Source: a virus (lineage: Duplodnaviria > Heunggongvirae > Uroviricota > Caudoviricetes). Taken from it: DNA of 12,150 nucleotides. This document shows, piece by piece, positions 1 to 12,150 of the stretch. The position numbers and the translations under genes are program-made. Location of the stretch: positions 1 to 12,150 of the IMG/VR virus record IMGVR_UViG_2681813004_000020. One strand, given 5' to 3'. The notes below the pieces were generated by a model that saw only the letters and a program-made list of their open reading frames with translations, did not search any database and was not told the DNA's origin. The first letter of the stretch is position 1, and every line of letters begins with the position of its first letter.

Positions 1-1284
1 TTACTTCTTCGCCTCTGCAACCACTTTACTACCCACGCCGCGGTTATTGTATTCCCACATGCGGTTGTAGTTAGTGTCATTCAGATTGCGCTGTATTTCG
101 TCGTTATCATCTACGCTGCCGGTATTACCCGCAAACGGACGATTAGAGATCACCGCATCGGCCCACGGTTTAGCCGTGTTAAAACCTTCGTTGATGGCGC
201 TATCACGGATCACCACCTGACCGTTGGTATTGGCATCAACATCCAGCGAGCGGCCCAGTTGCGCCACACCATCACCGAAAGCATTGAAACGGCTGTTTAC
301 GGCGAGGAAACCGTAGTAAATGTTGGACAGCGTAGCCGGTGCAAACACATACGCTTCTTGCTGAGTACGTGAGTTCACCACGCGGAATTCGGTGTTATCG
401 AACACCACTGCGCCGCGACCAGAAACGATATCCACATCCCCTTCAATGTAGCTGTTGGTCACCAGCGTACGCGGCTGACGGTTGGTTTCCAGACGGTTCT
501 GCACACCGCTGTTGGTGACAAAGAAGGTGTTCTGACGACCGAGAATGTTAACGTTGTTAATCTGTACCTGGTCACCATCAGTACGCAGTGCCACCGCCGG
601 ATGGTTACCTGCATCTACGCTATCGCCCAGCGTGTTTTCGATGGTCAGATTTTGCAGTTGCAGGCCATTGTTTTGTGACCAGAAGACCGCAGAGCAGAGA
701 ACACCGATACTGTCGCTGCGTTTGCTCTGGCAGCTATCGTACATATACCACGCTGGTTTACCTGGCATATATTTGCCGCGCGGGTTGACGTCGTGACGCC
801 AGTCGGCAGGGCTCATGCCACCATCAAGGGAAAGCCCAATCTTCACATCAATCGGTTTTTCACCTGTACCGTACAGAGTAATTCCACCCGGAGCGGCAGG
901 GACATATACCGTTCCCTGATACTCACCAGGCATCACGGCAATATACTGGCGCTTGTTGGTACGCTTGATAATTGCCGCATCTACCGCCGCCTGAATCGTG
1001 GTATGCGTTACACCTTGAGTGCCCGCCGGGCCGACAATAAAGTCAGGTTGCGCAGGCAGGGTAATCGGGGAAGGATTCCACGCTGCAGCACCTGGTGTCA
1101 GGGATGCAAAATAGTGTTGAGCATCGAAATTCTGCGCTTCTTTTGCCGACAGAATCGGGCGAGAAGAGGTACCAGGCGCGGTTTGATCAGAAGGACGTTG
1201 ATCGGGCGGGGTTGAGCTACAGGCGGTCAGCGTCACGCCAAAAGCCAATGCCAGCGCCAGACGGGAAACTGAAAATGTGTTCAC
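1..1284 (-). CDS. ybhC: YbhC, pectinesterase-fold outer-membrane lipoprotein (acyl-CoA thioesterase), the host gene flanking lambda attB
   Basis: 427-codon ORF filling the window start; N-terminus MNTFSVSRLALALAFGVTLTAC has a signal peptide and lipobox Cys; GTG start at 1284..1282, TAA stop at 3..1; sits directly beside the lambda att core, as in E. coli. Confidence 0.85.
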   Translation of the reverse strand: MNTFSVSRLALALAFGVTLTACSSTPPDQRPSDQTAPGTSSRPILSAKEAQNFDAQHYFASLTPGAAAWNPSPITLPAQPDFIVGPAGTQGVTHTTIQAAVDAAIIKRTNKRQYIAVMPGEYQGTVYVPAAPGGITLYGTGEKPIDVKIGLSLDGGMSPADWRHDVNPRGKYMPGKPAWYMYDSCQSKRSDSIGVLCSAVFWSQNNGLQLQNLTIENTLGDSVDAGNHPAVALRTDGDQVQINNVNILGRQNTFFVTNSGVQNRLETNRQPRTLVTNSYIEGDVDIVSGRGAVVFDNTEFRVVNSRTQQEAYVFAPATLSNIYYGFLAVNSRFNAFGDGVAQLGRSLDVDANTNGQVVIRDSAINEGFNTAKPWADAVISNRPFAGNTGSVDDNDEIQRNLNDTNYNRMWEYNNRGVGSKVVAEAKK

Positions 1285-1330
1285 AGGTTGCTCCGGGCTA
1301 TGAAATAGAAAAATGAATCCGTTGAAGCCT

Positions 1331-1420
1331 GCTTTTTTATACTAAGTTGGCATTATAAAAAAGTATTGCTTATCAATTTGTTGCAACGAACAGGTCACTA
1401 TCAGTCAAAATAAAATCATT
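1331..1420. other. attL (B-O-P'): lambda att core plus P' arm with IHF and Int arm-type sites
   Basis: Exact 15-bp core GCTTTTTTATACTAA at 1331-1345; IHF-consensus TATCAATTTGTTG at 1371-1383; arm-type Int sites AGGTCACTAT and CAGTCAAAAT at 1392-1411; int stop follows at 1419. Confidence 0.9.
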
Positions 1421-2492
1421 ATTTGATTTCAATTTTGTCCCACTCCCTGCCTCTGTCATCACGATACTGTGATGCCATGGTGTCCGACTTATGCCCGAGA
1501 AGATGTTGAGCAAACTTATCGCTTATCTGCTTCTCATAGAGTCTTGCAGACAAACTGCGCAACTCGTGAAAGGTCGGCGGATCCCCTTCGAAGGAAAGAC
1601 CTGATGCTTTTCGTGCGCGCATAAAATACCTTGATACTGTGCCGGATGAAAGCGGTTCACGATGAGTAGATGCAATTATGGTTTCTCCGCCAAGAATCTC
1701 TTTGCATTTATCAAGTGTTTCCTTCATTGATATCCCGAGAGCATCAACATGCAATGTTGTAGGGATGGCAATTTTTACGCCTGTTTTGCTTTGCTCGACA
1801 TAAAGATATCCATCTACGATATCAGACCACTTCATTTCGCATAAATCACCAACTCGCTGCCCGGTAACAACAGCCAGCTCCATTGCAAGTCTTAGCCAAC
1901 ATGGTGATGATTCTGCTGCTTGATAAATTTTCAGGTATTCGTCAGCCGTAAGTCTTGATCTCCTTACCTCTGATTTTGCTGCGCGAGTGGCAGCGACCGG
2001 GTTTGTTGTTATATGGCCTTCTTCAGCTATTGCCTCTCGGAATGCATCGCTCAGTGTTGATCTGATTAACTTGGCTGACGCCGCCTTGCCCTCGTCTATG
2101 TATCCACTGAGCATTGCCGCAATTTCTTTTGTGGTGATGTCTTCAAGTGGAGCATCAGGCAGCCCCCTCCTTATTGCTTTAATTTTGCTCATGTAATTTA
2201 TGAGAGTCTTCTGCTTGATTCCTCTGCTGGCGAGGATTTTTTCGTAGCGATCAAGCCATGAATGTAACGTAACAGAATTATCACTGTTGATTCTCGCTGT
2301 CAGAGGCTTGTGTTTGTGTCCTGAAAATAACTCAATGTTGGCCTGTATTGCTTCAGTGATTGCTATCCTCCTGTCTCGGCCTAATCCAAACTCTTTACCC
2401 GTCCTTGGGTCCCTGTAGCAGTAATATCCATTGTTTCTTATATAAAGATTAGGGGGTAAATCCCGGCGCTCATGACTTCGCCTTCTTCCCAT
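1419..2492 (-). CDS. int: Tyrosine integrase, lambda Int type
   Basis: 357-aa ORF starting MGRRRSHERRDLPPNLYIRNNGYYCYRDPRTGKEF, recalled as near-identical to lambda Int; catalytic elements HELR, LLGH and the Tyr in SQYRDD are present; ATG start; adjacent to attL. Confidence 0.95.
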   Translation of the reverse strand: MGRRRSHERRDLPPNLYIRNNGYYCYRDPRTGKEFGLGRDRRIAITEAIQANIELFSGHKHKPLTARINSDNSVTLHSWLDRYEKILASRGIKQKTLINYMSKIKAIRRGLPDAPLEDITTKEIAAMLSGYIDEGKAASAKLIRSTLSDAFREAIAEEGHITTNPVAATRAAKSEVRRSRLTADEYLKIYQAAESSPCWLRLAMELAVVTGQRVGDLCEMKWSDIVDGYLYVEQSKTGVKIAIPTTLHVDALGISMKETLDKCKEILGGETIIASTHREPLSSGTVSRYFMRARKASGLSFEGDPPTFHELRSLSARLYEKQISDKFAQHLLGHKSDTMASQYRDDRGREWDKIEIK

Positions 2493-2688
2493 TTCTGATC
2501 CTCTTCAAAAGGCTACCTGTTACTGGTCGATTTAAGTCAACCTTTACCGCTGATTCGTGGAACAGATACTCTCTTCCATCCTTAACCGGAGGAGGGAATA
2601 TCCTGCATTCGCGCACCCATCGACGAACTGTTTCAAGGCTTCTTGGGCGTCGCTGGCGTGCATTCCACTCCTGAAGTGTCAAGTACAT
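2470..2688 (-). CDS. xis: Excisionase, lambda Xis type
   Basis: 72-aa ORF MYLTLQEWNARQRRPRSLETVRRWVRECRIFPPPV, recalled as matching lambda Xis; overlaps the int start by 23 nt as in lambda. Confidence 0.93.
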   Translation of the reverse strand: MYLTLQEWNARQRRPRSLETVRRWVRECRIFPPPVKDGREYLFHESAVKVDLNRPVTGSLLKRIRNGKKAKS

Positions 2689-2714
2689 CGCAAAGTCTCC
2701 GCAATTACACGCAA
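2665..2714 (-). promoter_or_regulatory. cII-activated pI-type promoter (TTGC-N6-TTGC box) at the xis 5' end
   Basis: Minus-strand TTGCGTGTAATTGC (plus 2701-2714) lies 13 nt upstream of the xis ATG, matching the lambda cII recognition repeat; the implied transcription start falls inside xis, as known for pI. Exact -10 not determined. Confidence 0.55.
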
Positions 2715-2719
2715 GAAAA

Positions 2720-2735
2720 GCCGCATTGATGCGGC
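2720..2735 (-). other. Perfect 7-bp-stem hairpin (GCCGCAT/ATGCGGC) followed by TTTTCTT on the minus strand, just upstream of the cII box; possible weak terminator or RNA processing site
   Basis: Inverted repeat read directly from the sequence; the loop is only 2 nt if fully paired, so terminator function is uncertain. Confidence 0.3.
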
Positions 2736-2794
2736 GATGGTAGGTCTGGATATCATTGAGCCATGAACAGGCCTCATCGAGTGTGAGGCTGTGG

Positions 2795-3139
2795 TTAGTC
2801 CTTTCGTAACTCGCTGATTCTCCTGTAAGTCTCTGGTGCTTTGTTTCCGTGTATCTTCATTTCAGACTTCAACAGAGCAACGAGGGAATCCCATTCGTTG
2901 AGGATGCCTTTGAATGCCGGAACGCGCTTTGCAACCTTGTCGAATGAATCTCTGATTTCTGGAATCTTCTCAACAAGTGCAACGCATCGTCGGAAGTCTG
3001 CTGCGTCATGGGGAGCGCCGAAGTGATGACCATAGATATTCTTTTTCAGGCCACATGCGATTGAGGCAAGAGTTGCGCTACTGATGCCAACATCGCCAGT
3101 CGATTGCCATTTCAAAACCTTCATAGACAAATCTGACAT
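2795..3139 (-). CDS. Hypothetical protein, 114 aa, int/xis-proximal accessory gene
   Basis: ATG at 3139..3137 preceded by GGAGACAAGAA (Shine-Dalgarno GGAG); TAA stop at 2795; no family recognised. Confidence 0.6.
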   Translation of the reverse strand: MSDLSMKVLKWQSTGDVGISSATLASIACGLKKNIYGHHFGAPHDAADFRRCVALVEKIPEIRDSFDKVAKRVPAFKGILNEWDSLVALLKSEMKIHGNKAPETYRRISELRKD

Positions 3140-3167
3140 TTCTTGTCTCCAATAAAAAAAACCTCCA

Positions 3168-3335
3168 TCAGGCGGCTTGGTGTTCTTTCAGTTCTTCAAT
3201 TCGAATATTGGTTACGTCTGCATGTGCTATCTGCGCCCATATCATCCAGTGGTCATAGCAGTCATTGATGTTCTCTGCTTCGATAACTCTGTTGAATGGT
3301 TCTCCATTCCATTCACCTGTGACTCGGAAGTGCAT
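3168..3335 (-). CDS. Hypothetical small protein, 55 aa (MHFRVTGEWNGEPFNRVIEAENINDCYDHWMIWAQIAHADVTNIRIEELKEHQAA)
   Basis: Found by manual translation (absent from the ORF track); ATG at 3335..3333 preceded by GGAGATGATAA; TGA stop at 3170..3168. Confidence 0.5.
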   Translation of the reverse strand: MHFRVTGEWNGEPFNRVIEAENINDCYDHWMIWAQIAHADVTNIRIEELKEHQAA

Positions 3336-3373
3336 TTATCATCTCCATAAAACAAAATCCGCCGTAGCGAGTT

Positions 3374-3404
3374 CAGATAAAAGAAATCCCCGCGAGTGCG
3401 AGGA
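3374..3404 (-). terminator. Intrinsic terminator candidate directly after the ASCH-protein stop
   Basis: Minus strand TCCTCGC-ACTC-GCGGGGA (7-bp stem with one G-U pair, 4-nt loop; plus 3387-3404) followed by TTTCTTTTATCTG (plus 3374-3386). Confidence 0.5.
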
Positions 3405-3407
3405 TTG

Positions 3408-3692
3408 TTATTCATTGCCGATATTCACCTTTATCGCGAACACCTTTACCGGTTTATCACCGAAGTGCGGATGTGTGATTGTCTTGATTTCATATCCGTC
3501 ATACGGAACATCAATTCTGCGGCTGGAATCGTCGCGCTTCGGATATCCCTTTGTGATAATCAGGCGGTCATACTCCCGGAACATAATTCGCTTATTCCAA
3601 TAGTCATTACACAGGCGATACTCTTCCGTTTTCTCTCCTCGAATCATGGCATCGAAGTATTCACCTTTGACGGCAAGTTGTAGGTTAGCCAC
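3408..3692 (-). CDS. ASCH-domain protein, 94 aa
   Basis: N-terminal LQLAVKGEYFDAMIRGEKTEEYR contains the ASCH signature GxKxxExR (G19-K21-E24-R26); GTG start at 3692..3690 preceded by AGGAGG with 7-nt spacing; overlaps the upstream stop by 8 nt. Confidence 0.7.
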   Translation of the reverse strand: MANLQLAVKGEYFDAMIRGEKTEEYRLCNDYWNKRIMFREYDRLIITKGYPKRDDSSRRIDVPYDGYEIKTITHPHFGDKPVKVFAIKVNIGNE

Positions 3693-3987
3693 GGTTAACC
3701 TCCTGCGGAGTAGCCTTTACAAGCACTGGTGCAAATCCATCTTCATTAAGGTTATGAATATAGACTTCTGTTCTCCTGCGCTCTTCAACGTTTAATATTG
3801 TTTCTGGATCATAAACCCATACTTTCATTCGACTATTCCATGAAGAAATCGCTTCAGATCTAGTTCGTTTTTCTGGTCCTTGGGCACCACATTTGCATGA
3901 CACATAGCGCATTTTCCCTCTGATACTGAATGAGTATCCGATGTTAAGCACAGTGGAACCACAGAATGGGCAGCGATATAGATTCAT
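3685..3987 (-). CDS. Lar-family-like zinc-ribbon protein (restriction alleviation family) with a ~45-aa C-terminal extension, 100 aa
   Basis: N-terminal LYRCPFCGSTVL...VSCKCGAQGPEKRTRSEAISSWNSR matches the recalled Lar-family pattern CPFCG...C-x-CGA-x-GP...EAI-x-x-WN-x-R; ATG preceded by AAGGTGGA; ATGA stop/start overlap with the upstream gene. Confidence 0.55.
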   Translation of the reverse strand: MNLYRCPFCGSTVLNIGYSFSIRGKMRYVSCKCGAQGPEKRTRSEAISSWNSRMKVWVYDPETILNVEERRRTEVYIHNLNEDGFAPVLVKATPQEVNRG

Positions 3988-4601
3988 AAATCATCCACCT
4001 TAGGCGCAGCTGAGACAGCAACATTCCAGAACTCAGAAAACATATTGTATGCACCAGATAGATTGGAAGTAGCATACCCTCCAAGCTCACTTCTAATCTG
4101 AACGGCTCTCATCATTTCCGGGGTTAACTCCTTCGGCACCATAACCCAACCATCCGGAGTTACCGGAGAGTTGCCACCGGGAATATTTTCCGGAATATTT
4201 TGTTGTGCGTTTTGTGGTTGTTCTGATTTACCCTGAAGCATGGCGGCGCGGCAGGCGTTCCAGCCAGCTGTTCGCCCAAGCGCGTAAACTTCAGATGGAT
4301 CAAGATAATCAATGTCATGCCCGTCCTCATCGTCGTTCTCAGGTAATGCAGCAGGTACTACCGGTACTGGCGGAGCGGCGTAGACCTCAATAATTCCATT
4401 ATCAATAGGCCATTCTCCATCCTTGAGGTAGTCACTTGTGCCGTCAACTTGCTGTTCTGCAATGTGGAATGCACCTATTGGTTTTGCTTCCAGCGATGCC
4501 AGAGCAATCCGTGCCAGTTCCATTTGTTCGCCACTAGTAAGTCCGTTATCAAGCGGGGATTTAATGAACAATTCGATACGTTCTTTAGTGATAGTGCTCA
4601 T
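3984..4601 (-). CDS. Hypothetical protein, 205 aa
   Basis: Start set to the internal ATG at 4601..4599 (MSTITKERIELF...), which has an AGGAG SD 7 nt upstream and lies 1 nt after the upstream TGA stop; the 33-codon extension in the ORF track overlaps the neighbouring gene and has no SD. Confidence 0.6.
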   Translation of the reverse strand: MSTITKERIELFIKSPLDNGLTSGEQMELARIALASLEAKPIGAFHIAEQQVDGTSDYLKDGEWPIDNGIIEVYAAPPVPVVPAALPENDDEDGHDIDYLDPSEVYALGRTAGWNACRAAMLQGKSEQPQNAQQNIPENIPGGNSPVTPDGWVMVPKELTPEMMRAVQIRSELGGYATSNLSGAYNMFSEFWNVAVSAAPKVDDL

Positions 4602-4602
4602 A

Positions 4603-5160
4603 TCACTCTCCTTTGATGCGAATGCCAGCTGCGCTTGCTGATTCTTCATATGCGCGTTTAGCAGCGTTAAGGATTGCTGCCAGTGGCGTATAGCCGCCAT
4701 CCATTCGGATTGTGTTGTGGATGCCAGCCATTGTGTCGCGCAATTTGCTGTGGCTAGCAGACAGTTCTGCTATGCACTTCTCTGCGGCATCGGCTCGATC
4801 TTTTTCACGCTGGAACATTTTGTGAGTGCGGTCTATAGCTTCGATTCGTGCCGCTGATGTCTTCTGCACGGCTTCAAGCTCAACACGCAGCTTCCCAACC
4901 GTAAGAGCAATATCCTCGTTCTTCTGGTCGCGGCGTTTGATGTATTGCTGGTTTCTTTCCCGTTCATCCAGTAGTGCCAGCACGGTTTCTGGCCCGGTCA
5001 GAAATTTGAAGGCGTTGAGCGCATCAATATCCACACCGTAATCCTTAAGTTCCTGTTCAGTTAACAAATCATCATCAACTGGCAACATTAACAGGCGTTC
5101 CATTGCCGGAATTGCACGCTCTGCCGCCTCACGCAGTGCCTGATAGTCAATCTTGCTCAT
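4603..5160 (-). CDS. ea22: Ea22-like protein, 185 aa
   Basis: Internal LLDERERNQQYIKRRDQKNEDIALTVGKLRVELE and C-terminal AGIRIKGE resemble lambda Ea22 as recalled; AAAGGAG SD 8 nt upstream; ATGA overlap with the upstream stop. Confidence 0.5.
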   Translation of the reverse strand: MSKIDYQALREAAERAIPAMERLLMLPVDDDLLTEQELKDYGVDIDALNAFKFLTGPETVLALLDERERNQQYIKRRDQKNEDIALTVGKLRVELEAVQKTSAARIEAIDRTHKMFQREKDRADAAEKCIAELSASHSKLRDTMAGIHNTIRMDGGYTPLAAILNAAKRAYEESASAAGIRIKGE

Positions 5161-5714
5161 TGGATGACTCCTTTACGAAGCTGTTCGGCGATATCTTCGA
5201 GAATGCCATCAGAGAATGAACGGTCAAAATCGCCTTCCGGCGCATTGGCCATAAACTCAGTAGAGGTAAGAATCATCCGGGCAATATCAGCGGCGTTCTT
5301 CGCAGTATCATCAATAAAACCAGCTTCCCAGGCAGCCAGCATTCTGTTCGCCACAAAGTAAGCGCCCTCCTTGCGTGCTTCAGTCTTCACTTCAGCCAGA
5401 AAAGCATCGGTGGCTGGGGTTTCAGTAATATCATCTTCCCATTCGCTAAACTCCTCACGACAAAAGTCATTAAATTCCTTCTCAGATTGCTTAAGCGAGG
5501 AATTTTCAGCAGCCATCTTCGCGCATTTAGCCTCAAGGTTATCAATCGTGATTCCAGCAGAACGACACTCCCGCAACGCCGTTTCTAGTTTTGATTCAAG
5601 TTCACCGAACTTACGGACAAGATATTCATCGTTTGTTTCGTCAACCTTTAAATCACTTGGGATGCATTTACCTTTCAGAAAACCATCCATCTCAATTAGT
5701 GTCATTTGTTTCAT
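5157..5714 (-). CDS. Hypothetical acidic protein, 185 aa (start at [12 protein letters not shown])
   Basis: ORF track starts at a GTG (5732..5730); the first ATG (5714..5712) forms an ATGA overlap with the upstream stop and is preferred; a second ATG lies at 5705. Confidence 0.55.
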
Positions 5715-5875
5715 TTCTTCCCACTCCGCCACATCGCATTCAGATATTTGTTGTCATTAACAGAACCGAAACTCTTTCTCTTAAGCAATTCCTCTCTCGA
5801 TGGCATTGGCTTTGCGCGTTGGCGAATAATCATTTCTGCCGGAAGAATGCCGGGATTGTATGCAAGTCCTCTCAT
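5711..5875 (-). CDS. Hypothetical small protein, 54 aa ([54 protein letters not shown])
   Basis: ATG at 5875..5873 preceded by GAGGAA; an in-frame upstream ATG at 5893 would give 60 aa; start lies inside copy 1 of the 109-bp tandem duplication. Confidence 0.45.
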
Positions 5876-6049
5876 GGTAAATTCCTCAGTCATTACTGAT
5901 AGCGCCATAGCGTGAGCGGTAATTACGCAGGCGCGGGTCAATTTCTGCCGGAAGAATGCCGGGATTGTATGCAAGTCCTCTCATGGTAAATTCCTCAGTC
6001 ATTACTGATAGCGCCATAGCGTGAGCGGTAATTACGCAGGCGCGGGTCA
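5832..6049. repeat. Perfect tandem duplication, 2 x 109 bp (5832-5940 and 5941-6049), with 5-bp microhomology ATTTC continuing at 6050-6054
   Basis: Base-by-base comparison: the two units are identical; the flanks differ (C at 5831, AGGG at 6055). Confidence 0.95.
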
Positions 6050-6288
6050 ATTTCAGGGAAGTGGGTATATGTGGCTTTGCGGAATGGTCGGATTGATGTC
6101 TGGTAAATTCGCTCGCGTTCTTCTTTCTCTGCAAGCCATATACAATGGCGAAATTCCTTTTCCTCTTTCGTTTCCTGCGGTAGCGACATTATCCGATCGT
6201 AGTTTTTTCTGAATTTATCCAGCACCTCCGATACGGAATTGCCGGAACAGCGGCGCGCGTCATCCGCACCATACAGAGGCGCTGGCAT
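5995..6288 (-). CDS. Hypothetical protein A1, 97 aa (MPAPLYGADDARRCSGNSVSEVL...), paralog of the 8937-9119 gene
   Basis: ATG at 6288 preceded by CAGGAGAAAAC; stop lies inside copy 2 of the 109-bp duplication; first 30 nt identical to the paralog. Confidence 0.6.
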   Translation of the reverse strand: MPAPLYGADDARRCSGNSVSEVLDKFRKNYDRIMSLPQETKEEKEFRHCIWLAEKEERERIYQTSIRPFRKATYTHFPEIDPRLRNYRSRYGAISND

Positions 6289-6304
6289 GGTTTTCTCCTG
6301 TTGA

Positions 6305-6853
6305 TTATTTAGCTAACTTTTTCCAGATCGCTGAAACGTATTTGGCTTGGTGAATGGCATCATCAAGCGCGTTGTGGCGAGTTCCTTTGAATGGCATATC
6401 TCGCTTAGGGTCTAATCCTATTACCTTCCCAAGTTCGACGATTGTTCTTACGTCGCGGTCATTCCACCACTGCCACGGAACTGGCTGCCCTGTCAGCGAA
6501 TAACTGTTTCGGAGAATAACGCAGTCAAATGATGCTCCATTCCCCCAAACCTGAACGAATTTGTGGTTAGCGTTCTTTATGATGAATTCAGATAACCATG
6601 AAAGAGCCGTTGAAAGCTCCTGAGTGTTGCTGGTTAGCGATTTTCTGGCTTCTTCACTCTGTTCCAGCCACCATAAAATCGTTGAAGCGTCAGGACGCGC
6701 CCGATATCGCATTGATGACTCAAGCGAGATATTTACCGAGAACTCTTCTCCTGTTTCTCCGGTATTCGGGTCAAAGAATACCGCCCCAATAGAAATAACT
6801 GGCGCATATGGCCCGTTGCCCATTGTTTCAAGGTCAACCATTAAGTGATTCAT
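6305..6853 (-). CDS. DnaQ-like DEDDh 3'-5' exonuclease, 182 aa
   Basis: Exo I motif VDLETMG near the N-terminus and H-x4-D motif HNALDDA near the C-terminus; AAGGA SD; lies next to ssb as in many prophage recombination modules. Confidence 0.8.
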   Translation of the reverse strand: MNHLMVDLETMGNGPYAPVISIGAVFFDPNTGETGEEFSVNISLESSMRYRARPDASTILWWLEQSEEARKSLTSNTQELSTALSWLSEFIIKNANHKFVQVWGNGASFDCVILRNSYSLTGQPVPWQWWNDRDVRTIVELGKVIGLDPKRDMPFKGTRHNALDDAIHQAKYVSAIWKKLAK

Positions 6854-6861
6854 GTAAGTCC

Positions 6862-7368
6862 TTAAATTGCGTGAATAGCGTGACGAGGGAAGGGGAGAGT
6901 TACTGGTGCAAAGGGTATATCGTCGTCAAAATCCATCGGAGGTTCGTTGTGTTGTGCTGGTGATGATTGCTGCTGTGGCTTCTGTGATTGCCTGCTGGCT
7001 GCTTGTTGTTTGCTGTCGCCAATTCCGCCAAGCATTTGCATCACGCCATTAATTCCGACATGAACCTCGGTTGTGTAACGGTCTTGCCCTGACTGGTCTT
7101 TCCACTTTCTGGTTCTCAGCATTCCCTCGAAATAAATCTGATCACCTTTTTTCACATACTGCCCCACGACCTCAGCCAGTTTCCCGGATACAGCAACACG
7201 ATGCCATTCAGTCAATTCCTTTTGCTCGCCAGTATTTTTATCTCGCCATTGTTCTGACGTGGCTATTGTCAGGTTAGCGAACGCTGTACCTGATGGTGAG
7301 TATCGAACTTCCGGGTCTTGTCCTACCCGACCAAGGATAATCACCTTATTTACGCCTCTGCTTGCCAT
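6862..7368 (-). CDS. ssb: Single-stranded DNA-binding protein (SSB) with an atypical 15-aa extension after the DDDIPF tip
   Basis: N-terminal [23 protein letters not shown]...[11 protein letters not shown] matches the E. coli SSB OB fold as recalled; Gln/Pro-rich linker; [11 protein letters not shown], then the frame continues [15 protein letters not shown] before TAA. Confidence 0.9.
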
Positions 7369-8076
7369 TTATGCCGCCTGTTTTAGTTCGTTAACTCTGA
7401 TGTTCATTACCTGAACGCATTTAGCCTGCGCCTCCTCATTGCCAGCCATTAATTGCCAGTCACGCTGATAACGCTCGATGAGTTTTTTCTTGTCAGTTTC
7501 TGTTGACGCATAATCGCTGAAGTCTTTCAGGATTTGTTCGCAGTCAACCGATGGAGATTTCTGGTTGGTATTTTCTGGTGATGGTTTGTTATCTGATGCT
7601 GGTATTGCCCATCCCGGCAGCGATGGAGGGAGCCAGTAAAATCCTGTTCCATCCTTGAGTTTTGCCCTGTGCCATCCCTGCTTTTTATCGAGAGATGTTT
7701 GTGCGAAACCTTCCTCAAGGTTATACAGATACCGACCGATTCCCCACTGAACGGCAGCGCGCTTCATTGCACCGGAACGACCACCTTTGACGGCTTCTAC
7801 CTGCGTGTTTTCAGCAGCATCCCATTTGGTTACCCATTCGGAATCAATCTTTATTGATATGCCGCATTCAACGCCGCCGTTGTTGGGAATATCGCGGTAT
7901 TCATTGCGCCATCCTGCTTTGCCGCAAACATCGTCCAGGCGTTTCATGATTGCCCGGTTCGTTACATAAGCCAGCACCATAGCCCACACTTTGCCATCGC
8001 GTGTTTTACCGCTTTGCTGTATTCGCCATTCGATATCTTCAGGGCTGAATGGCTCATCGAATTTATTCAAATCCAT
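7369..8076 (-). CDS. Rad52-type single-strand annealing protein, 235 aa
   Basis: Motif GAMKRAAVQWGIGRYLYNL resembles the Rad52 signature GLKRALRSFGNALG; GAGGTGA SD; directly upstream of ssb. Confidence 0.65.
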   Translation of the reverse strand: MDLNKFDEPFSPEDIEWRIQQSGKTRDGKVWAMVLAYVTNRAIMKRLDDVCGKAGWRNEYRDIPNNGGVECGISIKIDSEWVTKWDAAENTQVEAVKGGRSGAMKRAAVQWGIGRYLYNLEEGFAQTSLDKKQGWHRAKLKDGTGFYWLPPSLPGWAIPASDNKPSPENTNQKSPSVDCEQILKDFSDYASTETDKKKLIERYQRDWQLMAGNEEAQAKCVQVMNIRVNELKQAA

Positions 8077-8084
8077 AATTCACC

Positions 8085-8255
8085 TCAGAATGGACACGGC
8101 CCAAGGAAATAACGCTGATTTAATACTTCAACTCGGGACAAATTAAGGCATACCCGCATTCCTTCGCGGTCGCCATTATGGCGATACCAGAGAGCTTTCT
8201 GCGTGTACATGCGTCTCTGTAACTTGCTCTCCTTCACTGTGGTTGCAAGTGACAT
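8085..8255 (-). CDS. Hypothetical small protein, 56 aa (MSLATTVKESKLQRRMYTQKALWYRHNGDREGMRVCLNLSRVEVLNQRYFLGPCPF), paralog of the 10416-10604 gene
   Basis: Manual translation; GAAGGAGATATTC-ATG (strong SD); stop overlaps the SD of the Rad52-type gene; aligns over its length with the 62-aa protein in the other module (shared L-x-R, A-x-W/Y-x-R-x-x-GD, CL, N-x-R-x-FL, terminal PF). Confidence 0.55.
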   Translation of the reverse strand: MSLATTVKESKLQRRMYTQKALWYRHNGDREGMRVCLNLSRVEVLNQRYFLGPCPF

Positions 8256-8334
8256 GAATATCTCCTTCGTTACCGATTAATTCTTTCATCTGACGAATGA
8301 ATTCTTCGTCTGACCAGTTATCTGTAAAACTCAT
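8176..8334 (-). CDS. Alternative small ORF, 52 aa (MSFTDNWSDEEFIRQMKELIGNEGDIHVTCNHSEGEQVTETHVHAESSLVSP), overlapping the 56-aa gene in another frame
   Basis: ATG forms an ATGA overlap with the kil-like stop, mirroring the junction in the other module, but has a poor SD and overlaps the better-supported 56-aa gene by 80 nt. Confidence 0.2.
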   Translation of the reverse strand: MSFTDNWSDEEFIRQMKELIGNEGDIHVTCNHSEGEQVTETHVHAESSLVSP

Positions 8335-8483
8335 TTCCTGCGATACCACGGATGGTTGATAGCTGATTTCATCGCTTTATTTGCTTCAAGCCACATTTTT
8401 GAATCACCAATAAATCTGGCTATTACTGCTTTGTTCTGTGCAGCACGAAGCATCTGGTGATTGATGGCTATTTCATTGCGCAT
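8331..8483 (-). CDS. Kil-like small protein (paralog), 50 aa
   Basis: MRNEIAINHQMLRAAQNKAVIARFIGDSKMWLEANKAMK... aligns with the other module's Kil (IATFIGDEKMFREAVEA versus IARFIGDSKMWLEANKA); GGAGG SD 5 nt upstream; start overlaps the 3' end of the cIII-like gene. Confidence 0.6.
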   Translation of the reverse strand: MRNEIAINHQMLRAAQNKAVIARFIGDSKMWLEANKAMKSAINHPWYRRK

Positions 8484-8602
8484 AACGCCTCCAGTTGTTT
8501 CTTTGCTGCTCTGATTAATTGTTTAACTCGGCGTGATAATTCAGATTCGTGCGGGTAGAAAGCGGACATGACGCCGCTACCCGCGAGCTGAAAGTGCATC
8601 AT
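8468..8602 (-). CDS. CIII-like small protein (divergent paralog), 44 aa
   Basis: MMHFQLAGSGVMSAFYPHESELSRRVKQLIRAAKKQL parallels CIII (AGxx...SESLLERITRKLRDGWKRL); TAAGGAG SD 5 nt upstream; immediately downstream of repeat copy 1; same cIII-then-overlapping-kil arrangement. Confidence 0.6.
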   Translation of the reverse strand: MMHFQLAGSGVMSAFYPHESELSRRVKQLIRAAKKQLEALCAMK

Positions 8603-8664
8603 GGGTAACTCCTTATATTTGATTGCATAACGAAAACGCCTCGAGTGAAGCGTTATTGGTATGC

Positions 8665-8692
8665 ATATAAAAAAGCCCTCACACTGGAGGGC
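8665..8692 (-). terminator. Intrinsic terminator inside repeat copy 1
   Basis: Minus strand GCCCTC-CAGTGT-GAGGGC followed by TTTTTTATAT; a second weaker hairpin AACGCTTC-ACTC-GAGGCGTT then TTCGTT lies at plus 8635-8654. Confidence 0.6.
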
Positions 8693-8785
8693 AAAGAAGA
8701 TTTCCAATAATCAGAACAAGTCGGCTCCTGTTTAGTTACGAGCGACATTGCTCACATAGCAGACTCGCAAATCTGCTATAGGTGC

Positions 8786-8944
8786 TTATTCGCATCGCAT
8801 GACAACATCAAATTTTTCGAGATTACTTTGTCGCAACAATCCTTCTTCTACGCGGTCAGCTTTTCTATAATTATCAAATTCGAAATGTTTAATTACTTCT
8901 TTCGTTTCTCGCTCTATAACTTCAACAATGTATTTCTTATTCAT
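8786..8944 (-). CDS. Hypothetical small protein, 52 aa (MNKKYIVEVIERETKEVIKHFEFDNYRKADRVEEGLLRQSNLEKFDVVMRCE), copy 1
   Basis: Manual translation; ATG overlaps the stop of the upstream gene (GATGAATAA); weak SD; duplicated exactly at 11027-11185. Confidence 0.4.
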   Translation of the reverse strand: MNKKYIVEVIERETKEVIKHFEFDNYRKADRVEEGLLRQSNLEKFDVVMRCE

Positions 8945-9119
8945 CGTTCTCATCTTTTAACGCGAGTTGTATATCGCGTCGGTACATCCGTTCTGCTTTT
9001 GTTTCTGGTGGCAGATCAATAAACGTGTCGAAAATGTTTTTGATATTTTCCAGCACCTCCGCCTTGGAGCTACCGGAGCAATTGCGCGGGTCATCCGCAC
9101 CATACAGAGGCGCTGGCAT
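8937..9119 (-). CDS. Hypothetical protein A2, 60 aa (MPAPLYGADDPRNCSGSSKAEVL...), paralog of the 5995-6288 gene
   Basis: ATG at 9119; first 30 nt identical to A1, then diverging; TAA stop overlaps the start of the 52-aa ORF. Confidence 0.55.
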   Translation of the reverse strand: MPAPLYGADDPRNCSGSSKAEVLENIKNIFDTFIDLPPETKAERMYRRDIQLALKDENDE

Positions 9120-9142
9120 AATGGGAGCCTTATTTTCAGTAA

Positions 9143-9730
9143 TCAGAAAGGAGGGTAATCGTTCTGGCTGTAACCATAATCATCTGCATGATTCTGGCTT
9201 ACGTTTTTAGAGCGATTGTCTTTATCTTTGAGATTGGCAACCATGTTGGCGATAGTTTCTGGTTGCTTGCCTTCTGCCTTTTCTTTAAGGGTTTGACCTG
9301 TTTGTGCAATAAACGGGATGCGTATTTCCATCTGGTAGCTGTCTGCGCCAGTCTTTTTGTTTGTGGTTAATACTTTCTGGAGCACTAACCCGATTTTCTT
9401 TCCATGAAATTCAGGTGCAACAAATTTACTGGCGGAAACCATATGCTGCGTTAATTGTCCAATCCCGGCACACCCCATCATGGCGTGAACGACATTTGCG
9501 CCAAATTTGTTTTCCGTGCCGTCATTTTTCTGAACACAGACGCTAAGATATTGGATTTTACGTCCGTCGTCGGATTCGCCAGAAAACTCAATAAATTTGG
9601 CTCCTTTTTCTGATTGCTTTAGTTCTGCTTCAGTAATGGTAATGATATGAGCACCAGTTTCGTTAATAAAACCACCTTGCCCTGCGGTCAGTGCTGCTTC
9701 TTCGTTATAAGTAAAAATCACGTTGCTCAT
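9143..9730 (-). CDS. Putative cognate ssDNA-binding partner of Sak4 (DUF669-like?), 195 aa, with an SSB-like C-terminal tail DYPPF
   Basis: ATGA overlap with the Sak4 stop; C-terminus ...HADDYGYSQNDYPPF resembles the acidic SSB tip DDDIPF; family assignment by context and tail only. Confidence 0.5.
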   Translation of the reverse strand: MSNVIFTYNEEAALTAGQGGFINETGAHIITITEAELKQSEKGAKFIEFSGESDDGRKIQYLSVCVQKNDGTENKFGANVVHAMMGCAGIGQLTQHMVSASKFVAPEFHGKKIGLVLQKVLTTNKKTGADSYQMEIRIPFIAQTGQTLKEKAEGKQPETIANMVANLKDKDNRSKNVSQNHADDYGYSQNDYPPF

Positions 9731-10407
9731 GCGGCGTTTTCCTTAATTTGATGAACATTATTGATGCCGTAGTAATCACAAACAGTGGCATCGACGAAAG
9801 AGAGATCGTTATCAATCTCATTGGAATCAAACATTCCCATTGGGGATTTAACAGTGTCTGCACCGTTGTTTTTTGTGGTGAAAAAGAACTGGTCATCACG
9901 GGTAAGGGTGCGAAGAACTATAGTAAACATGCCTTCGACAGTGATTTTCTCGTCCAGCATTTTGCCGATAGTCTTCATTTTCACACGCCCCATAGGAGTT
10001 TCTTCGGTGTGCGCAAGAAAATAGACTCTCAGGTCATCAGGCGCATCCTGCGCAGCCTTAATGACCTCCCATGCGTGACGGCCTATCTCAGTAAATTTAT
10101 CAAACGATTTTTCTTCTGAGCGGCGCATAAACTCATTGCTCATCACATACTGGAAGTCATCAACAATAACGATTCTTTTCCCGTATTCGTGAGCACGCTT
10201 AATTACGGCAACTATTACGTCCCATTTGTCAGTGGTAACTACGGTTCCTTTTTTTGCTCTGGCATCCCATGCAAGCCAGTCTTTTGATTTAAATGGTAGC
10301 GGCTTGCCTATTGGTTTTATAAGTATTGCTTCCTCTGGATTGATATTTCTCATGCTGGTTGATTTTCCGGTGCCAGACTCACCGAGTATTAATGTCGCAG
10401 TTCCCAT
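9727..10407 (-). CDS. Sak4-like RecA-core P-loop ATPase (AAA_24-type phage recombination protein), 226 aa
   Basis: Walker A GESGTGKS at residues 9-16, Walker B-like IVIVDD; size and position downstream of kil, where lambda has its Red recombination genes; GAGG SD. Confidence 0.7.
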   Translation of the reverse strand: MGTATLILGESGTGKSTSMRNINPEEAILIKPIGKPLPFKSKDWLAWDARAKKGTVVTTDKWDVIVAVIKRAHEYGKRIVIVDDFQYVMSNEFMRRSEEKSFDKFTEIGRHAWEVIKAAQDAPDDLRVYFLAHTEETPMGRVKMKTIGKMLDEKITVEGMFTIVLRTLTRDDQFFFTTKNNGADTVKSPMGMFDSNEIDNDLSFVDATVCDYYGINNVHQIKENAA

Positions 10408-10415
10408 AATTTGCC

Positions 10416-10604
10416 TCAGAATGGTAATTCGGATGGGGAGGAAAGAAACTCGCGCTCATTCATGCGCTCTCTTTGTGCCTGCCATAAACAAAGTTGTTTC
10501 TTTGATTTATCTCCCGCTTTACGCCAGTAACGAGCCTCAGCAATGTGATATTCTCTTTTTAATCGACTTAACTCTGGAGTTTTCGCCAGTTCTACCGGAA
10601 TCAT
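10416..10604 (-). CDS. Hypothetical small protein, 62 aa (MIPVELAKTPELSRLKREYHIAEARYWRKAGDKSKKQLCLWQAQRERMNEREFLSSPSELPF)
   Basis: Internal ATG with GGAGG SD and an ATGA overlap with the kil stop; paralogous to the 56-aa protein at 8085-8255. Confidence 0.5.
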   Translation of the reverse strand: MIPVELAKTPELSRLKREYHIAEARYWRKAGDKSKKQLCLWQAQRERMNEREFLSSPSELPF

Positions 10605-10714
10605 TTTGACCTCCATTTCCTGTAGGCTTCGACGGCCTCACGAAACATCTTTTCATCGCCAATAAAAGTGGCGATAGTGAATTTAGTCTGGATAGCCATA
10701 AGTGTTTTATCCAT
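10601..10714 (-). CDS. kil: Kil (FtsZ-targeting host-killing peptide), 37 aa
   Basis: MDKTLMAIQTKFTIATFIGDEKMFREAVEAYRKWRSK; ATG overlaps the last codons of cIII as in lambda; the ORF-track version includes an unsupported N-terminal extension. Confidence 0.6.
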   Translation of the reverse strand: MDKTLMAIQTKFTIATFIGDEKMFREAVEAYRKWRSK

Positions 10715-10847
10715 TTTTTGGAACTCCTGGCTGATTAAGTATGTCGATAAGGCGTTTCCATCCGTCACGTAATTTACGTGTGATTCGCTCAAGTAAAGAT
10801 TCGGAAGGGCAGCCAGCAACAGGCCACCCTGCAATGGCATATTGCAT
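10707..10847 (-). CDS. cIII: CIII (FtsH/HflB protease inhibitor), lambda type, 46 aa
   Basis: MQYAIAGWPVAGCPSESLLERITRKLRDGWKRLIDILNQPGVPKNG matches lambda CIII as recalled over its whole length; AAGGAG SD 7 nt upstream; lambda CIII is recalled as about 8 residues longer. Confidence 0.8.
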   Translation of the reverse strand: MQYAIAGWPVAGCPSESLLERITRKLRDGWKRLIDILNQPGVPKNG

Positions 10848-10905
10848 GGTGTGCTCCTTATTTATACATAACGAAAACGCCTCGAGTGAAGCGTTATTGG
10901 TATGC

Positions 10906-10933
10906 ATATAAAAAAGCCCTCACACTGGAGGGC
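10906..10933 (-). terminator. Intrinsic terminator inside repeat copy 2
   Basis: Same GCCCTC-CAGTGT-GAGGGC plus U-tract as in copy 1. Confidence 0.6.
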
Positions 10934-11026
10934 AAAGAAGATTTCCAATAATCAGAACAAGTCGGCTCCTGTTTAGTTACGAGCGACATTGCTCACATAG
11001 CAGACTCGCAAATCTGCTATAGGTGC

Positions 11027-11185
11027 TTATTCGCATCGCATGACAACATCAAATTTTTCGAGATTACTTTGTCGCAACAATCCTTCTTCTACGCGGTCAG
11101 CTTTTCTATAATTATCAAATTCGAAATGTTTAATTACTTCTTTCGTTTCTCGCTCTATAACTTCAACAATGTATTTCTTATTCAT
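11027..11185 (-). CDS. Hypothetical small protein, 52 aa, copy 2 (one extra in-frame ATG upstream)
   Basis: Identical to 8786-8944; here preceded by GGGGAAGA, and the ATG overlaps the stop of the 98-aa gene. Confidence 0.4.
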   Translation of the reverse strand: MNKKYIVEVIERETKEVIKHFEFDNYRKADRVEEGLLRQSNLEKFDVVMRCE

Positions 11186-11481
11186 CATTCTTCCCCAAGA
11201 GCTTTTCTGATTGCTGCAAGACCTTTATTAACAGCTCCATACCATTCTGGATATGTTGTCTTTGTTCTATTTTTGGTTTGCTTAAGTAATAACTGAAGTG
11301 CTTCGAGAAGGTCAGGTGCTGCCGCTATTAGATTGGCATCTTCAATGCATTGAACTTCCTCACAGATTGCAATATACGAACGCCAGCCTGCGCCATTTTC
11401 AAGTGAGTCTGCCTGGATGATTTTAATCTCATCGCCATCCATCATTATTTCCCACTTACCTTCAGTACCTTTAAATTCCAT
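11185..11481 (-). CDS. Hypothetical protein, 98 aa
   Basis: ATG at 11481 preceded by AGAGGCTAAC; acidic N-terminal half; no family recognised. Confidence 0.6.
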   Translation of the reverse strand: MEFKGTEGKWEIMMDGDEIKIIQADSLENGAGWRSYIAICEEVQCIEDANLIAAAPDLLEALQLLLKQTKNRTKTTYPEWYGAVNKGLAAIRKALGEE

Positions 11482-11492
11482 GTTAGCCTCTG

Positions 11493-11520
11493 TTGTTTAT
11501 GCCAAAAATAAAGGCCGACT
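11493..11520 (-). terminator. Intrinsic terminator (tL1-like position) overlapping the stop of the 107-aa gene
   Basis: Minus strand AAGGCCG-AATAGT-CGGCCTT (7-bp stem) followed by ATTTTTGG. Confidence 0.6.
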
Positions 11521-11842
11521 ATTCGGCCTTATCTACATTCCTGAACCAAACGCAGATCGGACCGTCTTCTGTATCGTGAATCGAACCGACAAACCATCCT
11601 TCTCCATCTGGCATGCTTGGCTCCCATCCACTGATGTTTTGATTCCCATCTTCAAAATACGCGTCAATTACCGTTTGATTGTTGTCGTTTTCCATTTCAA
11701 CAATTGATGATTCAATGCCATGCTGCTTGCAGAAAGATCTGAACTCATCAGCTGAAATTACCTCTCTATCCCCAAACAGGTTGGCGTATTCTGGGTGCGT
11801 CCAGTAGCCATCCTCGCTTCGCTCTACTACTAATGCTTCCAT
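11519..11842 (-). CDS. Highly acidic Trp-rich protein of unknown function, 107 aa, first gene after N
   Basis: ATG at 11842 preceded by GAGGTGAGAT; about 24 Asp/Glu against 6 Lys/Arg; four Trp; no family recognised. Confidence 0.65.
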   Translation of the reverse strand: MEALVVERSEDGYWTHPEYANLFGDREVISADEFRSFCKQHGIESSIVEMENDNNQTVIDAYFEDGNQNISGWEPSMPDGEGWFVGSIHDTEDGPICVWFRNVDKAE

Positions 11843-11850
11843 ATCTCACC

Positions 11851-12150
11851 TCAAATAAGTGGTTTGCTGCCTAATTTCATTTTCTGGCGACCAACACAAG
11901 TCACACCCATTTCACTGCGTGGCTTGCGGTAGTAAATACGGTTCTGTTTACGCTCTACTTCTTCTGCCTTCTTGCAGCGAAGGCTTCCGAGTGATGCTGC
12001 TTTATCTGCTCTGACGCAACCAGAGAGCTTTAGCGCAATTTTTCGCGCCAGTCGCTGCTCTTGCATTGCCTGTTCACGTTGAGCCTGTCTGCGTGCTCTG
12101 CGGCGATTTCTGGCGTTATCGTCAGCCAGATATGTAATGACTACTGTCAT
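11851..12150 (-). CDS. N: N-like transcription antitermination protein (phage 21-type C-terminus); the ATG sits exactly at the window edge, so the true start may lie further upstream
   Basis: Arg-rich motif NARNRRRARRQAQREQ near the N-terminus; C-terminus RKPRSEMGVTCVGRQKMKLGSKPLI parallels lambda N ...SKPGERGITCSGRQKIKGKSIPLI; position at the head of the leftward operon. Confidence 0.8.
   Translation of the reverse strand: MTVVITYLADDNARNRRRARRQAQREQAMQEQRLARKIALKLSGCVRADKAASLGSLRCKKAEEVERKQNRIYYRKPRSEMGVTCVGRQKMKLGSKPLI

Follow-up and report, generated by a model that had tools for sequence, protein, structure and literature searches.

An extended Lar-family protein with a conserved C-terminal tail in the early-left operon of a mosaic lambdoid prophage

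The window analysed here is a stretch of 12,150 nucleotides (positions 1 to 12,150 of IMG/VR record IMGVR_UViG_2681813004_000020, a virus of the Caudoviricetes), which carries an intact Lar-family gene of 100 amino acids on its minus strand. The open reading frame (ORF) runs from an ATG at 3987 to a TAA at 3685-3687, and the ORF list and the sequence agree exactly with the coordinates 3685-3987 given by a first-pass annotation of the same DNA; database identity likewise supports a complete gene. That annotation had described the product as a Lar-family zinc-ribbon protein with a long C-terminal extension and had proposed that it might be a RalR-like toxin controlled by an antisense RNA. The zinc ribbon and the extension, which is real and conserved, are upheld by the present analysis, whereas the toxin with its antisense regulator found no support in the sequence tests that were run. 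By analogy, the protein is most likely a phage accessory factor of the early pL operon, which would alleviate type I restriction as Rac Lar does, a reading that we hold with moderate confidence.

Profile comparisons place the assignment to the Lar family far beyond chance. The N-terminal domain (residues 1-53; 3829-3987, minus strand) scores above the curated cut-offs of both Pfam PF14354 Lar_restr_allev (E=1e-8, 35.7 bits against a gathering score of 28.6, residues 2-53) and TIGR03655 (anti_R_Lar; E=5e-16, 58.7 bits against a cut-off of 39.6), with residues 3-54 covering positions 1-55 of the 55 positions of the latter profile; the family membership that had been left to a hidden Markov model search is thereby corroborated. 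A third profile, phrog_599 ('Lar-like restriction alleviation protein'), matches residues 1-99 (E=4e-18). All three motifs that had been noted for the family (CPFCG, CxCGA and EAIxxWNxR) are present as C6-P-F-C9, C31-K-C33-G-A-Q-G-P and E45-A-I-x-x-W50-N-x-R53, so that a four-cysteine ribbon (CPFC ... CxC/CxxC) is followed by a helix ending in WNxR. C6, C9, C33, W50, N51 and R53 do not vary in either alignment (A5 or A6), and in A6 the same is almost true of C31. In the AlphaFold2 model, strands 14-21 and 24-31 form a beta-hairpin (14-31) and residues 43-52 a helix, with a predicted local distance difference test (pLDDT) score of about 91-92 over residues 11-50. The modelled domain superposes on phage Lar-family models of BFVD with a root mean square deviation of 1.0-1.9 A over 51-56 alignment columns (probability 1.00), and it has the beta-hairpin, short third strand and C-terminal helix of the Lar fold. 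Profile matches and predicted structure thus agree on family and fold, and the four conserved cysteines suggest that the domain binds zinc.

The C-terminal extension comprises residues 54-100 (about 46-47 amino acids; 3688-3828, minus strand) and brings the protein to 100 amino acids, compared with 64 amino acids for Rac RalR, as had been noticed in the first reading of the sequence. It is kept in all relatives of 98-100 amino acids; these have identities as low as 56% and come from Escherichia coli, Shigella and several species of Enterobacter. Its conserved positions include W57, Y59, P61, E69, R70, R71, T73, Y76, I77, L80, G84, F85, P87, A92 and E96. Nei-Gojobori estimates from five genes gave ratios of non-synonymous to synonymous substitution rates (dN/dS) of 0.15-0.35 for residues 54-100 and of 0.13-0.25 for residues 1-53 in divergent pairs; since synonymous sites in these pairs are near saturation (dS about 0.5-2.3, and above 1 for the tail values), the estimates show that the tail is translated and constrained. 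AlphaFold2 (mean pLDDT of 84 for the full protein) predicts a strand at 57-59, an Arg-rich helix at 67-82 (EERRRTEVYIHNLNE) and a strand at 88-90, and a second model, calculated for the 58%-identical relative P0020 (pLDDT 79, predicted template modelling score 0.66), has identical tail elements. When 1.84 billion representative proteins were searched with a tail profile, only the clade of the tail itself (P0005, P0021, P0029) was retrieved, together with one fusion fragment, P0012; the remaining matches were spurious repeat proteins (ankyrin, KH-like), which accumulate short matches to a 'DGF/W-xP-(V/L)-hydrophobic' motif. On the basis of this exhaustive search, the idea that the tail is a once-independent gene or a widespread domain was rejected. 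The fusion fragment P0012 (74 amino acids) joins the N-terminal peptide of lambda N (PF11438) to the last 24 residues of the tail; presumably, it arose when some prophage underwent a large deletion within its pL operon.

The gene is intact, and its two parts form a single polypeptide. There is no stop between the Lar domain and the tail in about 20 cluster representatives, and the frame is open and unbroken in every relative down to 56% identity. The internal Met54 is replaced by Cys in P0023, and inspection of the sequence revealed no Shine-Dalgarno motif or other ribosome binding site in front of it. A Shine-Dalgarno sequence is located at the actual start, where AGGTGG (3995-4000, minus strand) precedes the ATG by 7 nt. 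The TGA (3984-3986) of the upstream 238-aa ORF overlaps this start codon (ATGA), which together with the Shine-Dalgarno sequence indicates translational coupling inside a single operon. At the other end, AGGAGG within the last codons (Q-E-V; 3699-3704, minus strand) serves as the ribosome binding site of the next gene, a 94-aa ASCH-like gene (3408-3692, minus strand) whose GTG start (3690-3692) overlaps the end of the Lar-family ORF by 8 nt. The Lar-family gene is therefore tightly packed and translationally coupled in a minus-strand operon.

The length of 100 amino acids is less unusual than it seems. A search with a Lar-domain profile yielded 115 best new hits with a median length of 66 amino acids, nine of which have 90-99 amino acids. 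Among the hits, 104 possess the WNxR motif, and 18 of these carry at least 25 residues beyond it; the tails are heterogeneous, and several contain a second zinc knuckle. Three proteins with two Lar domains (P0026, P0027 and P0037) and three with a second zinc knuckle (P0134, P0123 and P0062) likewise consist of a Lar domain and 30-45 extra residues. With total lengths of 84-119 amino acids among these other extended or tandem proteins, extension is recurrent in the Lar family, and the tail described here is one clade-specific version. The other tails are Cys-rich or second Lar repeats, whereas this tail is neither: it contains no cysteines and has no similarity to the tails of other extended Lar-family proteins. 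The idea that it might be a degenerate, Cys-less second repeat, which arose because MAFFT aligned it with the second domain of the tandem proteins P0026 and P0027, was rejected, as the hhalign probability was 0.2% and the predicted secondary structure is different. The tandem proteins themselves, which are present in metagenomes (P0026 and P0027 with 118 and 119 amino acids, P0037 with 84), contain two complete zinc-ribbon repeats, which hints that Lar domains may work in pairs.

The window is part of a mosaic lambdoid prophage adjoining ybhC. Around the Lar-family gene, its sequence agrees in full (100% identity) with that of E. coli O26:H11 str. 11368 and of numerous further genomes of Shiga toxin-producing E. 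coli (STEC), and the best phage matches to the window are Stx1a-converting phages (52% coverage at 94% identity). On the same strand, the genes follow the order N-like gene, cIII, kil, AAA_24 ATPase, Rad52-like annealase, SSB, 3'-5' exonuclease and abc2, followed by Ead/Ea22-like genes, the Lar-family gene, the ASCH-like gene, two small ORFs, xis and int. These genes make up the early-left (pL) operon, in which the Lar-family gene occupies the place that lar/ralR has in Rac, between the recombination genes and xis-int. Its relatives are found in the same accessory zones of other prophages.

The product of gene 20 of Shigella phage Sf6 (NP_958196.1, 'Lar-like restriction alleviation protein') also has 100 amino acids and is 97% identical over the full length, including the tail; the three substitutions all lie in the tail (A67, T86 and H99 in Sf6). 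By its sequence, the gene of the window is thus already known as a catalogued Lar-family member. Gene 20 has the same position in the early-left region, after an Ead/Ea22-like gene; its downstream neighbour, however, is gene 19 instead of the ASCH-like gene. No experimental characterisation of Sf6 gp20 was found in the literature, and full-text searches returned Lar-like genes in genome-annotation mentions only, with no study of an extended variant. Rac Lar, which is identical to RalR (b1348, 64 amino acids), belongs to the same Pfam and TIGR family as the protein of the window and shares with it the CPFC knuckle, the second Cys pair and the EA(I/L)xxWNxR helix, with a gap-free alignment from G24 to R53 and 34% identity over 53 residues. 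The tail of RalR comprises 11 residues and is Gly/Asn-rich, whereas that of the protein described here comprises 47 residues and is predicted to be folded. A further comparison is offered by the lambda protein Ral, which is made early from the pL operon and relieves type IA restriction by stimulating de novo methylation; the function proposed here is the same. Ral and RalR were called 'not related' in the RalR study (24% identity; PMC4041452), and a Pfam scan of the protein described here gave no match to the Ral family, lambda Ral being unrelated in sequence.

In this reading, the protein is produced early, from the N-antiterminated pL transcript, as a single 100-aa polypeptide of a four-cysteine zinc ribbon (1-53) and a small strand-helix-strand module (54-100), the latter being present only in the E. 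coli/Shigella/Enterobacter clade, and it most likely acts as soon as the phage has infected the cell or has been induced. The zinc ribbon would bind the type I restriction-modification enzyme of the host and tilt its activity from cleavage of the unmodified phage DNA towards methylation; this step is proposed because Ral turns M.EcoKI from a maintenance into a de novo methyltransferase via HsdM (PMC3874165, PMC12707154). The tail is probably a lineage-specific interaction module, which would provide a further site of contact with a partner protein, with other copies of itself or, via its Arg-rich helix, with nucleic acid. Expression would be controlled by prophage repression and by translational coupling in the operon instead of a dedicated antisense RNA; as pL is off in the repressed prophage, even a harmful protein could do without an antitoxin of its own. 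Public annotation agrees with the family membership, as seen from the names given to Sf6 gp20 and by the Prokaryotic Genome Annotation Pipeline (PGAP), which labels the locus 'Lar family restriction alleviation protein'. Alleviation of type I restriction together with enhanced modification in vivo is known for Rac Lar alone (King and Murray 1995, as cited in PMC4041452 and PMC2993543). Several points weigh against this reading. Rac Lar/RalR, the only characterised member, shares no more than 34% identity over 53 residues with the protein, has CxxC instead of CxC in its second zinc knuckle and was described as a DNase toxin as well (PMC4041452). Moreover, binding to HsdM/HsdS is borrowed from lambda Ral, a protein unrelated in sequence, and the role suggested for the tail is pure inference; fold searches gave no significant match for the tail (best E value of 0.3 with Foldseek against the PDB, and BFVD matches to the N-terminal domain only).

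The possibility that the gene encodes a RalR-like type I toxin, that is, a non-specific DNase that is translationally repressed by an antisense or trans-encoded small RNA (sRNA) in its vicinity, is regarded as improbable. It derives from the shared Lar domain, as both proteins match TIGR03655, and from the report that RalR is a Mg2+/Ca2+-dependent DNase, which is toxic on induction (PMC4041452). According to the same study, the RalR/RalA system consists of the 64-aa toxin and an adjacent, oppositely oriented, Hfq-dependent sRNA of 179 nt, RalA, whose complementarity to the ralR coding region covers 16 nt, 11 of which are contiguous. RalR has its own equivalog model, NCBIfam NF007260 (cut-off 113 bits; RalR scores 166 bits and P0044 142 bits), to which neither the protein of the window nor its Enterobacter relative P0008 has a match at E<=1. 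Guo et al. reported that mutations at RalR positions 14, 37, 39, 49, 51 and 52 lower toxicity and that a K52 mutant lost DNase activity (PMC4041452); the aligned residues here are S11, G37, E39, S49, N51 and S52, so that only N51, one of the six, is kept and K52 is replaced by Ser, in a comparison that is weak because the loop alignment is uncertain. The antisense regulator fared no better. A RalA homologue or known RNA family at the locus was rejected, as blastn of RalA against the window produced only chance matches of 10-17 nt, none near the gene (a non-homologous sRNA is outside the reach of this search), and Rfam had no match at the Lar-family gene. The longest stretch complementary to RalA in the mRNA of the window is 7 nt, compared with 11 nt in ralR. 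A promoter on the plus strand, which had been suggested as a sign of antisense transcription, did not emerge: there is no sigma-70-like site in 3200-4000 that could read through 3685-3987, and the sole plus-strand promoter-like site, at 4171-4199, is directed away from it. A 16-nt complementary repeat like that of RalR is missing, and the best inverted repeats that involve the ORF are 11 nt long (91%), with none longer; plus-strand RNA of 3600-4000 folds no better than shuffled sequences (z=+1.06), and no run of synonymous conservation was detected in the codons of invariant residues. A conserved partner is lacking, since the neighbours differ between loci: the gene downstream of the window gene is ASCH-like and not rcbA/ydaC, and relatives are flanked by DUF551, Ead/Ea22 or unknown ORFs in early-left and nin-like regions. 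Membership in a defence system was likewise rejected, as PADLOC-DB returned no match for the Lar-family protein or its two flanking genes. The toxin idea is thus unsupported by the sequence tests, though not disproved.

Among the other explanations, a Lar-fold zinc ribbon with a different target appears rather unlikely; here, the tail would redirect the protein to a restriction family other than type IA, to BREX or to a recombination or replication factor, and 'restriction alleviation' would be a family label only. It is also conceivable, with little likelihood, that the tail changes the action of the Lar domain itself, either by retargeting it to a defence system that is not of the EcoKI type or as a brake in cis on a RalR-like nuclease, which would spare the RNA antitoxin. 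Least of all do we expect that the ORF is not one gene, being composed of a truncated Lar pseudogene and a separate 47-aa protein starting at Met54 or of a recent accidental fusion of two genes. Such a division is found in RefSeq, where the ORF (892537-892839 of NC_013361.1; 4386-4688 of locus L001) is split by PGAP into a pseudogene ('Lar family ... incomplete; missing C-terminus'; residues 1-50) and, in the same frame, the hypothetical protein WP_000870097.1 (residues 54-100), and a 47-aa cluster representative, P0029, exists. The continuous frame of all relatives, the Cys at position 54 of P0023 and the lack of a ribosome binding site before Met54 argue against two genes, as do the failure to find a free-standing tail homologue outside the clade in the profile search, the complete match of the Lar domain to the TIGR model and the annotation of the full 100 amino acids in Sf6. 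The RefSeq split is probably an annotation artefact, which results from the 55-position family model.

The downstream ASCH-like gene matches phrog_625 (E=2e-51) and is named ASCH domain-containing by PGAP, although its Pfam ASCH match is weak (E=0.068). In the Enterobacter loci L004 (5427-5732) and L006 (1281-1586), the extended Lar gene has a 68%-identical copy as its downstream neighbour, but such a copy is absent from this position in L007, L009, L010 and Sf6. As a conserved partner, the ASCH-like gene was therefore rejected: it recurs in E. coli and E. cloacae-type loci and is absent in others, and the two genes form a loose module. Directly after it lies a predicted terminator-like GC-rich hairpin with a T-run (3385-3406, minus strand; consensus scan only), which sits within the operon and precedes both small ORFs as well as xis and int. 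The upstream 238-aa ORF (3984-4700, minus strand) is a mosaic, in which the last 135 residues share 64% identity with the C-terminus of Sf6 gp21 (Ead/Ea22-like) and the N-terminus matches other phrogs; PGAP annotates the region as two pseudogene fragments.

Further features were observed elsewhere in the window. The Rfam family Lambda_thermo (cIII thermoregulator) matches in full length at 10802-10860 (minus strand, 88.5 bits), which confirms lambda-like control of cIII translation in the prophage. A perfect direct repeat of 300 nt is present at 8626-8925 and 10867-11166, 2241 nt apart, and each copy holds most of an ORF of 53-55 amino acids (MNKKYIVEVIERETKEV...; 8786-8953 and 11027-11188); as a result of the repeat, the cIII-kil-ATPase segment could become deleted or duplicated. 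In addition, a perfect tandem duplication of 109 nt (5832-5940 and 5941-6049) overlaps the 3' end of abc2 (anti-RecBCD, 5995-6288) and gives rise to a pair of overlapping ORFs (5711-5974 and 5886-6134) in which peptide segments recur. A second, diverged copy of the 5' part of abc2 (8991-9119 compared with 6160-6288, 72%) is located within a 60-aa ORF (8937-9119; MPAPLYGADDPRNCSG...) and looks like a truncated paralogue.

STEC genomes and Stx1a-converting phages encode the Lar-family protein with 100% identity, and the gene is present, almost always intact, in 154 of 5426 complete E. coli genomes (about 3%). As the gene is catalogued in Sf6, in Stx1a-converting phages and in these genomes, the finding matters little beyond housekeeping. 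It is of modest use in that it points to a probable annotation artefact in RefSeq, the division of an intact ORF into a pseudogene and a 47-aa hypothetical protein. The Lar family, whether its members act as anti-restriction factors or as DNase toxins, carries modular C-terminal tails, and a comparison of proteins with and without the tail would be a cheap probe of how Lar proteins choose their targets.
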